A stretch of DNA of 7,945 nt from Candidatus Odinarchaeota archaeon (GCA_038826135.1 JAWBON010000053.1:1-7945), one strand, 5' to 3'. Counted from the stretch's first letter, positions 4,125 to 7,945 are shown. Notes: generated by a model from the letters alone, not told the origin. Translations and numbers: made by a program.

Positions 4125-5462
4125 TTATATTACTAAAGGGGAACACTCGGTTGAACGGTACAGTCTACTCTCCCTGCTAGGTTTTAACCCGTACTCCATA
4201 GCTCTGGAAGCGTAATTTAAAAGAACACTCATAAGATCCACAGCTCTCAGTCTTCCAAGACCGCCTTTCAAAACCTCTCTTTCATTAAAGTGTTTTACGC
4301 TATCGGGAACAATATTCGGAGCGTATATGGTTAACGCCGGCGGGTCCCCTATATGTATCCCCAGTTCACTGGATGTTGAATGATCCGAGGTAACTGCGAC
4401 CACCGCCTTACCGGGTAGGATTAAACTATCCAGTATTATTTTAATAGCGGAATCAATTTTTTCAATCATTCTAACCTTCTCTAAAGGTTTCCTATCATGG
4501 CTGGCTGAATCAGTTCCCTTAACATGTACGAATACAAAATCATATTTATCCAGTAATTCAAGAGCTTTCCTAAATTTAGCTTCCACATTAGTGTTTAAAG
4601 TACCTGTAGCTTCAGGCACATCGTAAACATCCATTCCAATATACCTAGCCACCCCACGGTAAAGTGAAAGCTTAGCTATACACGCTCCTTTCATACCCCA
4701 AACTTTAGAAAAAGGCTCTATTATTCTAACTAAACCCGCTCCTCTAGGCAGCAATATATTAGCAGGTAATAAACCATTTTTAACCCTTAACCGGTTAATT
4801 TCATGTTCTTTAAGTATATGATAAGATGATTTAACAACCTCGTTGATTATTCTAGCTGTTTTATCAGCTTCGGTGAAATTAACAGTGCTCGATAAAGCTT
4901 CACACTTGTTAACGCAGCTATCCACCTCATGCGGGTCACTGTCGGTGACATCTCCGCAAAGCCCCTCACCCTCCACTACTAGTATACCCCTATGCTCAAT
5001 GTTAGGTATTATCTTTATTTTAGCACCGTTAACATTATTCAACTGTTTCTGCAAATCATCTATCAGAGTTTTAGCCTCCTCTGTGCTAATTCTGCCCGCC
5101 CTCCTATCTTTAACAATAAGTGATATGCCCCCCTCAATTTTTCTCTCAACAACTGTGGCTAAATTAAAACGGCATGCTAAAGTCCCTTCCTTAACGGGTA
5201 TATTTGAACCTAAAGCCTCTATAGGACCTCTGCCAGGATAATACTTAGCCGGGTCAAAGCCGAATAAAGCAAGATGAGCTGAATCACTTCCAGGAGCAAC
5301 ACCAGGTCCGAGCACATCTAAAACTCCTGTAATACTCAACTCTGCAATTTTATCAAGATTAGGAGTTTTAGCGTACTCTAATGGAGTTTTGCCCCCTAAC
5401 TCTGATACCAGTCTATCAGACATTCCATCACAAACAATCAAAAGTATTTTAGGAAGATTCAT
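4125..5462 (-). CDS. apgM: 2,3-bisphosphoglycerate-independent phosphoglycerate mutase, archaeal type
   Basis: Motifs DGMSD, KTPLEYAKTPNLD, PGSD (phospho-Ser), FGFDPAKYYPGRGPIEALG, HVKGTDSASHD, TSDHST and HIGDP. Confidence 0.92.
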   Translation of the reverse strand: MNLPKILLIVCDGMSDRLVSELGGKTPLEYAKTPNLDKIAELSITGVLDVLGPGVAPGSDSAHLALFGFDPAKYYPGRGPIEALGSNIPVKEGTLACRFNLATVVERKIEGGISLIVKDRRAGRISTEEAKTLIDDLQKQLNNVNGAKIKIIPNIEHRGILVVEGEGLCGDVTDSDPHEVDSCVNKCEALSSTVNFTEADKTARIINEVVKSSYHILKEHEINRLRVKNGLLPANILLPRGAGLVRIIEPFSKVWGMKGACIAKLSLYRGVARYIGMDVYDVPEATGTLNTNVEAKFRKALELLDKYDFVFVHVKGTDSASHDRKPLEKVRMIEKIDSAIKIILDSLILPGKAVVAVTSDHSTSSELGIHIGDPPALTIYAPNIVPDSVKHFNEREVLKGGLGRLRAVDLMSVLLNYASRAMEYGLKPSRESRLYRSTECSPLVI

Positions 5463-5515: not shown

Positions 5516-5999
5516 AACATTAATTAGTCAACTAAATGTTGTCTATTATTTAAACACATTAGCAGTTAGATGATCCCACGCTTATTTATCTCTTTAACTT
5601 GTTCTAATAAAAAAATATTTGAAAATTAATATTATATTAACCTATCTTGATTTATAAAAAATAGTTCTATGTTATACACCATGCGCTATAAAAATAAAAA
5701 AAGAAGATTGCTGCATGGCACCTCAACAGCAAAAGAGTCCTATATTAAAAGTGAATTATCTCAATATCAGAAATATGTAAAATTCATAGACTAAATGAAA
5801 AATAAAAGTAGAGTAAACAACTTAACTTTTTTCTACTGTTTTGTTATAGGTTTTACCGTTGCAAGTGGCTTTCCCTTGCTCCAAAAACTTAAACTAAACG
5901 CCTTAGATTTAATATTTTATTATATATAATTATAATAGAAAAGAATATAAAATATTTTTAACTAATTTTTATTACTACTATAATAAAAGAGGGTAGGAA

Positions 6000-6716
6000 A
6001 TGACCTCCATAGAAATTGAGCGATTAAATGATCATCAGGATTGGATATATGATAGTACTATCATTTTAACTAAACCAATAGTATCGGGTAGAAACAGGTT
6101 AAAGAAGATGCGCAGGCAATCTGTCGTAAAAGTAATTGATGAAATTCTCAGGATAAGTGAAGAAGACCAAGAGGAATTACTAGATGTTCTTTCGGATCTA
6201 GTTATCAATAAAGAGCTTACTGAAATAGAAATCATCAAATTAAAAGAGGAAATTGAAGATAAAATGAATCAAATTAAAAAAATAGGAGCTAAATTTTCTA
6301 ATTTAACTAATTATTTTAATTCTTTAGACGAAGCCACTAAGAAAGACTTAATAAAATTATCAATAGATAAAGCCTTAGTGTATTTTAACGGATTAAAAGA
6401 GGCTGTAATTAAAAGTGTTTGGGATAAGGAAGCTAGTATACAGAACACTATGATACTAGGAAAAACTATACATACAATTACTGAATACCTTTCCAAGTCT
6501 TCTAAAAAAATTAAAACTAAAAAGGTGAAAGAAGATTATTTAGAAGAGAATTTAACCGTCGCATTAATACTTATTCTTAAAATTGAAGCTTATAGACGGG
6601 GTAAAATTACCATCGATGAGCTGGAGCAGACATTAGCAGGTCTACCATTAGAACCAAACAGAAAATATGTTTTACCAGAGGAATATAAGGGTGTCTTGGA
6701 AGTGTTAAATGCTTGA
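6000..6716 (+). CDS. Hypothetical 238-aa predicted all-helical protein, putative partner/antitoxin of the downstream PIN protein
   Basis: Long ORF with Glu/Lys/Ile/Leu-rich amphipathic composition and SD-like GAGGGT upstream. Its TGA overlaps the TTG start of the PIN gene. No family recognised. Confidence 0.8.
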   Translation: MTSIEIERLNDHQDWIYDSTIILTKPIVSGRNRLKKMRRQSVVKVIDEILRISEEDQEELLDVLSDLVINKELTEIEIIKLKEEIEDKMNQIKKIGAKFSNLTNYFNSLDEATKKDLIKLSIDKALVYFNGLKEAVIKSVWDKEASIQNTMILGKTIHTITEYLSKSSKKIKTKKVKEDYLEENLTVALILILKIEAYRRGKITIDELEQTLAGLPLEPNRKYVLPEEYKGVLEVLNA

Positions 6717-7435
6717 ACTACTTTACTCTCGATACAAATATACTAATAGGTGTCGCTAATGAAACAGATGAATTGCATGAAAAATCTCTTTCATTAATAA
6801 CAGGTGAAGATAGAAAAGGACATAAATGTTTTTTAGTTTATACTGCGGTAAGAGAATTTAACTTAACATTTCGGAAAAAATTAAATCAAGCCATCGGAGA
6901 AATATTAGAGGAGCTAAGAAAAATTGAAGACGTAGAACAAGGATTCGATTTAAAGAGGAATTTAGTAGAATTATTTAATAGAAAGATAAATCAAAAAACA
7001 CTTCTTACTAATTTTTATAAATTATTATTTAAAAAGATAGACGAATATATAATAGAAAATCTCGATATTTCCCGTCTATTCACATACTTAGTAGAATTAA
7101 CAGAAAATTTATCTAGGATCGCTTTTGATGTTATTAATGATATTATCGGTGAATTAGAAATTCATTATATCGATTTAACAAATGAAGATCATATAGAAAA
7201 AGTCTCTAAAATTAATGAATTATCAAGAGAGATTATATTTAAGGATAAAACAGATAAAGCAATTCTAATCGAAGTAATAATTACCGTTCTCGACTTATTA
7301 GAAAAAACTACGCTTTATTCAAGCGATAAAGAATTAAAAATAAAAGCGTTAGCAGTAATCAAATCGTTAAAAGGTAGCTTCCAAAAAATAGAGTTACTCG
7401 ATATAAAACATATCGACGAATATAATATTAATTAA
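6713..7435 (+). CDS. Enlarged PIN-domain ribonuclease (VapC-like fold with a long helical insertion)
   Basis: The PIN acidic set is present: D7 (FTLDTNILI...NETDELH), E48 (VYTAVREF), D178/D181 (DKTDKAIL) and D205 (LYSSDKEL). TTG start with GGAAGTG 8 nt upstream. Confidence 0.8.
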   Translation: MNYFTLDTNILIGVANETDELHEKSLSLITGEDRKGHKCFLVYTAVREFNLTFRKKLNQAIGEILEELRKIEDVEQGFDLKRNLVELFNRKINQKTLLTNFYKLLFKKIDEYIIENLDISRLFTYLVELTENLSRIAFDVINDIIGELEIHYIDLTNEDHIEKVSKINELSREIIFKDKTDKAILIEVIITVLDLLEKTTLYSSDKELKIKALAVIKSLKGSFQKIELLDIKHIDEYNIN

Positions 7436-7439
7436 ACGT

Positions 7440-7945
7440 ATGGTGACAAATATAGGCACTATTATTATACTATGTGGTGGTCAATCAAATCGGTTAAAAA
7501 CTAGTAAACCCTTTCTAAAACTCGGATCCACTACTTTAATCGAATACGTTGTGAATAGGGTTAAAAAATATTTTAAAAATATTTTCATAATTGTTAAGAG
7601 CTCCGAAGATGCTGAAAAAATTAAAGCTTTTTTAAGAAACGTTACAGTTTTAGAGGACACGGTGAAAGATCAGCAGGCTCCTATACTGGGGCTTCTAACC
7701 GCTGTGGAGAAAATAAGTGAAAGCGTATTCTTCACATTATCATGTGACATGCCACTGGTTGATTTAAACATAGTAGATATGTTAATTAAACCATTAGGGG
7801 ATCACAATCCGCTTATACGCAGATGGCCTAACGGCTTCATAGAACCACTTTTCGCCGTATACCGTAAAGAAGCCTTAGAACAAAGTATCAGGCAGGTTTT
7901 ATCTGAGGGAAGGTTTGAACTGACGCGAATGGTTTCCAAACTAAG
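7440..7945 (+). CDS. mobA: Molybdenum cofactor guanylyltransferase, 5' part (runs off the window; absent from the ORF track)
   Basis: My translation from ATG 7440 gives MVTNIGTIIILCGGQSNRLKTSKPFLKLG...QAPILGLLTAVE...FFTLSCDMPLV...IEPLFAVYRKE, open to the end of the window. It has the MobA motifs LxGGxSxR...K, GP-like AP-LGL, CDMP and EPLxAxY. Confidence 0.88.
   Translation, partial: MVTNIGTIIILCGGQSNRLKTSKPFLKLGSTTLIEYVVNRVKKYFKNIFIIVKSSEDAEKIKAFLRNVTVLEDTVKDQQAPILGLLTAVEKISESVFFTLSCDMPLVDLNIVDMLIKPLGDHNPLIRRWPNGFIEPLFAVYRKEALEQSIRQVLSEGRFELTRMVSKL

Follow-up and report, generated by a model that had tools for sequence, protein, structure and literature searches.

A horizontally acquired archaeal gene pair joins an enlarged VapC-like PIN protein to a large, predicted all-helical partner and may form a toxin-antitoxin-like or defence module

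No toxin family has more members in archaea and thermophiles than the PIN-domain proteins of the VapC type, whose known antitoxins are small proteins that bind DNA. In classical VapBC, the antitoxin C-terminus lies in the cleft of a helical element that follows strand beta2 of the toxin and interferes with the catalytic site, while the PIN_12 or DUF4935 proteins (PF16289), mainly bacterial, are enlarged VapC-like PIN proteins of about 200 aa and of unknown function (Matelska et al. 2017, PMC5499597). In the partner-swapping network of the PanAT and NetFlax systems, PIN toxins occur with antitoxin domains that are unrelated and in some cases globular, and neutralisation proceeds via three-dimensional epitopes (Ernits et al. 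2023, PMC10440598). In the Menshen system (NsnABC), an inactive PIN domain is fused to a BECR effector and occurs with the ABC ATPase NsnB and the ParB-like NsnA, NsnC-N being devoid of the catalytic residues (PMC12065111). That PIN toxins pair with varied antitoxins is an established general principle and, because partner swapping around them has already been documented (NetFlax, PMC10440598), the find reported here is incremental; the family pair itself, termed orfA-orfB, is uncatalogued. Neither family is described in Pfam, NCBIfam, PADLOC 2.0, PHROGs or the literature searched, and public records label the proteins "hypothetical" or "PIN domain-containing". As a mobile cassette the pair is conserved, the enlarged PIN protein being always accompanied by a large protein, folded and helical, that fits no known family.

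Compared with VapBC (reference structures PDB 5x3t, 3zvk and 3tnd), orfA-orfB resembles the known system in that (i) the partner gene comes first in a tightly coupled bicistronic layout, (ii) orfB shares the modelled fold and the D-E-D-D acidic set of VapC, (iii) the C-terminal part of orfA, like the VapB C-terminus, is predicted to sit at the alpha1/alpha3 side of the PIN domain, and (iv) the distribution is patchy and mobile. In contrast, VapC measures about 135 aa whereas orfB measures 240 aa and contains a four-helix insert of about 95 residues, and VapB is small with a DNA-binding domain whereas orfA, with 238 aa, is modelled as fully folded and all-helical. The helical element after beta2 that is bound by VapB is the one enlarged in orfB, and the model places orfA on it, canonical VapC having no such insert.

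The window, by which we mean the whole stretch of DNA analysed, is a complete 7,945-bp contig of an archaeal genome bin (1.26 Mb, 38.4% GC, 93% complete), and its DNA occurs in hot-spring metagenome runs. Its minus strand encodes the small and large subunits of an aconitase-family enzyme, a homocitrate-synthase-like protein, an Lrp/AsnC regulator and ApgM, an archaeal phosphoglycerate mutase (apgM, 4125-5462; Pfam PF10143, E = 2.6e-49; 75-76% identity to congeners). The plus strand carries orfA, orfB and a MobA-like nucleotidyltransferase gene truncated by the contig end (mobA, 7440-7943; PF12804, E = 1.5e-25), which is assigned to the host by synteny as well. A further ORF at 4-321 has no Pfam match and, because five conserved housekeeping genes stand between it and the insert described below, it is not tied to the cassette.

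Three congeneric genomes have all the flanking genes conserved and collinear, and in them the divergent neighbours apgM and mobA are spaced by 73-76 bp as against 1,977 bp here. Alignment of the relatives' empty sites with both junctions placed a strain-specific insert of about 1.9 kb, composed of a leader, orfA and orfB and absent from these three genomes, at 5528-7435 (boundaries ± 2 nt). A first-pass annotation of this DNA had placed the gene pair on a low-GC insert and this is borne out, since the GC content is 27.1% in the stretch 5529-7434, whereas 1.9-kb windows average 38.4% (sd 2.6) across the genome; of the 2,184 overlapping windows of this size in the assembly, it is the lowest. Both junctions are bridged, at no less than 95% identity, by independent contigs from other hot-spring runs belonging to two studies, so that the insert is no assembly chimera. 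The insert is foreign and was horizontally acquired. It consists of the gene pair alone, with no other element genes, and the cassette is single-copy in the genome. mobA now starts 4 nt past orfB and is separated from its ancestral upstream region. Across the insert, no joint of the empty-site form was found in four runs, which carries no weight either way.

Upstream of the pair, positions 5528-5999 (plus strand) form an AT-rich non-coding leader with ORFs of at most 44 aa, presumably the promoter region. The leader did not meaningfully resemble that of any other cassette or any other part of the genome, Rfam and tRNA searches of the insert returned no match, and a promoter and terminator scan, which uses a bacterial model, did not exceed the shuffled expectation. 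Two kinds of repeats occur at the insert. An 8-nt direct repeat, ATTAATTA, is present at 5519-5526 (left copy) and 7427-7434 (right copy, overlapping the orfB stop codon at 7433-7435) and as a single copy at the relatives' empty site. Target-site duplication and microhomology could each account for it, and in DNA so rich in AT it is weak evidence. In addition, 5624-5638 and 7419-7433 form an inverted repeat of 15 nt with no mismatch. Such repeats, together with the occurrence of the cassette in many unrelated neighbourhoods, would suit a small transposon-like element that is mobilised by the pair itself, with the PIN-like nuclease taking part in the element's insertion. We consider this very improbable: the inverted repeat has its left arm about 96 nt inside the insert and not at the end, both repeats are low-complexity AT sequence, only one copy resides in the genome, and the predicted orfB fold best matches RNase toxins. 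PIN-family proteins are not known to act as transposases.

orfA (6000-6716, plus strand, ATG start) and orfB (6713-7435, plus strand, TTG start) are joined by the TTGA overlap at 6713-6716, where the junction reads ...AAT GCT TGA / TTG AAC TAC and the stop of the former coincides with the start of the latter, an arrangement indicative of translational coupling. Both ORFs and their 4-nt overlap had been called in the first-pass annotation and are confirmed. By our own estimate, about 8% stops per codon are expected at 27-29% GC, which amounts to a chance of about 1e-9 per frame of some 240 codons, so that two open frames of this length are far beyond chance. Comparable junctions were found in 11 other cassettes, with gaps or overlaps ranging from -11 to +6 nt.

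Taken singly, orfB matched no model in Pfam, NCBIfam or PADLOC, curated PIN-clan HMMs included; neither its sequence nor the family profile matched a PDB entry, and word-index searches of 5.8 billion proteins with orfA or orfB alone returned no relative. When 1.84 billion representatives were scanned exhaustively with HMMER, 34 orfB relatives besides the query were recovered, nearly all of 204-267 aa, and 27 of them, 21-30% identical to orfB, were used for the family alignment. Five of these 27 matched PF01850 weakly (best E = 4.6e-05), and the N-terminal profile of the family also matches ordinary VapC-type ORFs of about 140 aa. The AlphaFold2 model of orfB (pLDDT 93.1, pTM 0.88) displays a Rossmann-like alpha/beta/alpha fold with a parallel five-stranded sheet, the elements following in the order beta1 with D7, alpha1, alpha2, beta2, alpha3 with E48, beta3, alpha5, a helix from D181, beta4 and D205. 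In structural comparison by VIA, the best-matching chains were covered whole: M. tuberculosis VapC (5x3t_B; Z = 11.4, rmsd 2.7 Å, 136 of 137 residues), 3zvk_A (Z = 11.2) and a further VapC toxin (Z = 10.8). Foldseek likewise retrieved VapC 3zvk and 5ecd with a probability of 1.0 (TM by target 0.58-0.64). D7 is invariant in the 27-relative alignment, and N9, E48, D178, D181 and D205 are each kept in at least 90%, which provides the four acidic residues (D, E, D, D/E) of a PIN active site. That the second gene retains all catalytic acidic residues of a PIN protein had been read from the DNA at the outset; with the help of the structure and the relatives, this turned out to be correct for D7, E48, D178/D181 and D205. 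These positions presumably correspond to the D7/E42/D98/E119 pattern of Shigella VapC, the match being one of pattern and not a residue-by-residue superposition. By its predicted fold and active site, and with no support from curated HMMs, orfB is a member of the VapC-like PIN group; it would act as a metal-dependent endoribonuclease.

The extra length of the protein, estimated beforehand at some 100 aa over the canonical PIN toxin, is accounted for by a four-helix insert (approximately residues 50-145, encoded at 6860-7147 on the plus strand), to which the additional 95-100 aa are due. In the model, the insert lies between alpha3, which bears E48, and strand beta3, where helices 43-74, 78-93, 99-116 and 119-145 form a bundle in place of the short alpha4. 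The nearest structures to orfB in the Atlas are archaeal clusters of about 230 aa automatically named "putative PIN domain" (TM 0.86). The next named neighbours are PIN_12 proteins (TM 0.57-0.58), which resemble orfB as enlarged VapC-like PIN proteins; assignment of orfB to PIN_12 was rejected, as neither orfB nor any of the 27 relatives matched PF16289 at E ≤ 0.01, and no orfA-like partner has been described for that group. Identity with Menshen NsnC was discarded too: a single relative among the 27 gave a match (E = 0.008), the catalytic residues are conserved in orfB, and the insert contains no ATPase or ParB gene. HARP (PIN_5), the minimal protein-only RNase P, shares with orfB a PIN domain with a helical insert and appears among the weak fold matches (Foldseek E = 0.06-0.13; VIA Z = 7.9). 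It superposes on orfB far worse than VapC does (Foldseek rmsd about 20 Å), and HARP is a single-gene housekeeping enzyme whereas orfA-orfB is a sporadic two-gene insert.

The partner, orfA, was modelled from a 12-sequence alignment as an all-helical protein of twelve helices (pLDDT 87.8, pTM 0.86). With 238 aa, and 235-259 aa in its relatives, it is about three times the size of VapB (some 70-90 aa with an N-terminal DNA-binding domain), is well folded and not disordered, and has no DNA-binding domain detected that could serve autoregulation. No RHH, AbrB, PHD/YefM or HTH Pfam domain was found in any of the 12 members, in agreement with the first-pass annotation, which had described a large helical protein with no recognisable DNA-binding motif; a cryptic HTH may be present in the N-terminal helices. 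The charge of the family is not consistently acidic. For none of the members was there a meaningful match in Pfam, NCBIfam, PADLOC or PHROGs, and the profile matched no PDB sequence. Fold searches gave a best E of 0.18 with Foldseek against the PDB, TM ≤ 0.42 in the Atlas, a best E of 0.18 in BFVD, and a best VIA Z of 9.1, to generic helical bundles only, where about 13 is advised for helical proteins. Since generic helical bundles were all that these searches returned, the fold of orfA is left unassigned and is not claimed as new. The structure searches suggested at the outset have accordingly succeeded for one half of the pair, orfB matching VapC, and yielded no specific fold for the other. 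PanAT antitoxins are defined by the Panacea domain, which orfA lacks: PF13274 had no match in the whole genome, no Pfam match was seen in the 12 members, and hhalign of the orfA family with five Panacea proteins gave a probability of 0.15%, both alignments being small. With sequence and fold searches of Pfam, NCBIfam, PADLOC, PHROGs and the PDB and the Panacea comparison all devoid of a family match, the pair stands outside the described families, as had been proposed.

The orfA and orfB families are adjacent in all 22 other loci examined. An orfA homolog lies directly upstream in 11 of 11 fetched pairs and in 10 of 10 further loci; the genes upstream of orfB relatives encode proteins of 235-259 aa that are all orfA homologs (phmmer E = 4e-9 to 1e-36, in a small set). 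The reverse search led to an orfA relative, labelled "hypothetical", in an Aquificota-labelled bin, and this gene is followed by a 232-aa member of the orfB family. In the methanogen family of Methanolobus tindarius DSM 2278, the PIN gene was present in 12 of 177 species genomes, and the same 12 genomes carry the partner, always adjacent, none having only one of the two. Pairwise identities of the two families are correlated (Mantel r = 0.82, P = 1e-4) with a Spearman coefficient of 0.29, a low rank correlation showing that the Mantel signal is driven by a few close pairs. At 10 loci of the Methanolobus family, the flanking ORFs differ in most cases, and on the contigs of two relatives the cassette adjoins a resolvase gene and many small ORFans. 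Neither 60 related genomes nor 400 genomes from the same phylum contained a full-length relative of either gene. Strict co-occurrence and adjacency (the co-occurrence of homologs having been put forward as a check), a patchy spread and changing neighbourhoods show that the pair is a conserved mobile unit. The relatives in cultured Methanolobus make it a tractable candidate. In one Methanolobus strain, a Shedu-type SduA_C gene lies about 2.5 kb from the cassette in a variable region. As to the defence-island context, which the first-pass annotation had put forward as a check, such a setting was seen in one lineage only, and neither PADLOC nor PHROGs contains a matching model.

A sister clade of PIN proteins of about 250 aa was identified in three genomes of the window's phylum. 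These proteins are homologous to orfB across the helical insert too (hhalign 97.8%), while their tightly linked upstream gene, encoding about 220-235 aa, shows no detectable relationship to orfA (probability 0.6%). From the sequences, this may represent either partner exchange, in the manner of NetFlax-like partner swapping, or divergence past detection.

Prediction of the orfA-orfB complex, a check already envisaged for this pair, gave an ipSAE of 0.88 in three runs, compared to 0.01 for the best of three controls. In calibration, 58 of 80 solved complexes and 2 of 110 mismatched pairs attained this mark, counts which are only rough here because own alignments were used. Contact agreement was at least 97% and the partner pLDDT at least 88. 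The predicted interface engages helix residues 133-159 and C-terminal residues 209-238 of orfA, and on orfB it comprises alpha1 (12, 15-19), R47, alpha3 (50-69), the insert helices (95-108 and 121-140) and residues 152-156, so that the segments 50-69, 95-108 and 121-140 would make the helical insert the docking platform of orfA. Conservation was not enriched among the residues of this predicted interface relative to the remainder of each protein. Overall, the model supports direct binding of the two proteins. Catalytic residues are absent from the confident predicted contacts, for which reason any occlusion of the active site by orfA would go beyond what the model itself places.

Taken together, we favour, with a probability of roughly 0.6, the reading of orfA-orfB as a horizontally acquired, self-contained toxin-antitoxin-like or abortive-defence module. 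In such a module, orfA would be made first, with translational coupling to orfB; the alpha3-alpha4 region of orfB would have grown into the four-helix bundle, and the central helix pair and C-terminal tail of orfA would bind this bundle and the adjoining alpha1/alpha3 face, as predicted. By occupying the face used by VapB antitoxins, orfA might keep the nuclease inactive or mistargeted, and its loss, degradation or triggering would release the orfB RNase. This is close to the non-canonical toxin-antitoxin or sensor-effector system suggested in the first-pass annotation, a proposal which gains support from the co-occurrence, the lack of any family match, the complex model and an asymmetric gene decay described below. 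Its functional core, comprising RNase activity, toxicity, neutralisation and any trigger (for instance infection by a virus, or turnover of the partner), is inferred. Should the pair work as a toxin-antitoxin or defence system, it would introduce a novel fold among antitoxins or sensors and a novel means of holding a PIN nuclease. A bolder version, which we hold as tentative and rather doubtful, is that the four-helix insert serves as a docking platform for large, folded, mutually unrelated helical partners acting as sensors, namely the orfA family in this cassette and the upstream family of about 220-235 aa in the sister cassette, with the RNase being freed on virus infection or element loss; the cassette would then be a new archaeal system of the abortive-infection type and not a plain addiction module.

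The features of the complex model are also compatible with a two-subunit nuclease of RNA processing or of a mobile element, in which no toxin is involved and orfA serves the PIN protein as an activating or targeting subunit, through substrate recognition or scaffolding. orfA is large and well folded and, in the model, sits on the insert with no visible plugging of the active site; substrate-measuring helical inserts exist in PIN enzymes, HARP RNase P being the weak fold match (Z = 7.9) mentioned above; and the two relatives found among small ORFans with a resolvase gene point in the same direction. Conceivable activities for such an enzyme are the processing of the element's own RNA or DNA, or the attack of host or competitor nucleic acids on behalf of a plasmid or virus. 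We regard this explanation as unlikely, given that the pair was inserted here alone, unaccompanied by element genes, and that no match to the pair was found at E ≤ 1e-3 in 72,556 plasmid and 50,697 phage records, nor to either family in PHROGs. A housekeeping role is likewise disfavoured, the pair being carried by only 7% of the genomes of the methanogen family.

The decay of the genes bears on this choice as well. In the methanogen family, the PIN ORF is interrupted by in-frame stops in 4 of the 12 carrier genomes, and the partner in none of the 12. Loss confined to the PIN gene fits a costly nuclease with a protective partner, that is, the toxin-antitoxin-like module, and suits a harmful nuclease better than a cooperative two-subunit enzyme; read from the ORFs, this asymmetry would be a second, independent hint of a toxin-like nuclease. 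The same four broken genes agree with a different possibility, namely that the cassette was functional elsewhere and the copy in the window is a decaying passenger, the neutral remnant of a past insertion. In comparisons with four other runs, from low-depth contigs (2-5x) in which errors in SNP and indel calls are possible, the cassette showed 6 non-synonymous to 1 synonymous SNPs, near the neutral expectation, against 3 non-synonymous to 11 synonymous SNPs in apgM (Fisher P = 0.016), and in two runs the A-run at 7382 is one A longer, so that the last 17 residues of orfB would be read in another frame. At face value, the cassette copy here may be near-neutral or under diversifying pressure, and the SNP spectrum together with the frameshift variant means that it may be drifting. 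For close pairs in other lineages, dN/dS was 0-0.26, derived from 3-6 substitutions per gene, too few for use. A mere remnant is nonetheless quite improbable in our view, as both ORFs are intact with all catalytic residues present and their coupling kept, the sequence upstream of mobA is now the 3' end of the insert, which disfavours simple loss, and a near-identical insert persists in samples of two studies.

The start codon of mobA lies 4 nt past the end of the foreign low-GC insert (window 7427-7445), while the ancestral 75-bp apgM-mobA spacer is kept on the apgM side, so that mobA is left without the upstream region that it originally had. At its right end the insert is AT-rich (ATATAATATTAATTAA); this sequence is roughly as far from the mobA start as the ancestral TTTAACATTAATTAG was, and it may act as a substitute TATA-like element for this gene. 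Alternatively, mobA may now be transcribed by read-through from the two cassette genes, orfA (the all-helical partner protein) and orfB (the enlarged PIN protein). The start context itself has changed from GCGGTG in relatives to ATGGTG in the window.

A perfect 15-nt inverted repeat, AATTAATATTATATT / AATATAATATTAATT, is found at 5624-5638 and 7419-7433; its right arm adjoins the right end of the insert, its left arm lies approximately 96 nt inward of the left end, and both arms consist of low-complexity AT sequence. Contigs from two other hot-spring runs carry one additional A in the A6 run at 7382, and this would put the final 17 residues of orfB out of frame; two further runs agree with the window at this position. 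The extra A reflects either variation in the population or an error due to low depth.

Within the AT-rich non-coding leader upstream of orfA, a GC-richer island (5840-5885) contains the sequence GCAAG-N9-CTTGC, a short hairpin bordered by GTTTT...AAAAC. The island had no Rfam match, and blastn with the insert as query found no other copy of it in the genome. At the contig end, a 105-aa ORF on the minus strand (4-321), with no Pfam match at E <= 0.001, is separated from the insert by five conserved housekeeping genes.

Three genomes of the window's phylum harbor a sister cassette (L021 973-2442, L022 1180-2616 and L023 161-1585), consisting of a PIN gene and an upstream gene. Its PIN protein (~250 aa) is homologous to orfB, helical insert included (hhalign 97.8%); the upstream gene encodes a helical-looking protein of ~217-235 aa, with no detectable similarity to orfA. 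In Methanolobus strains, a variable region lies ~2.5 kb downstream of the orfA-orfB cassette (L056 10831-12081 versus L055 10974-12263). As one strain has a Shedu-type SduA_C gene and the other an unrelated 429-aa gene at the same position, there is a hint that this region is a defence hotspot.
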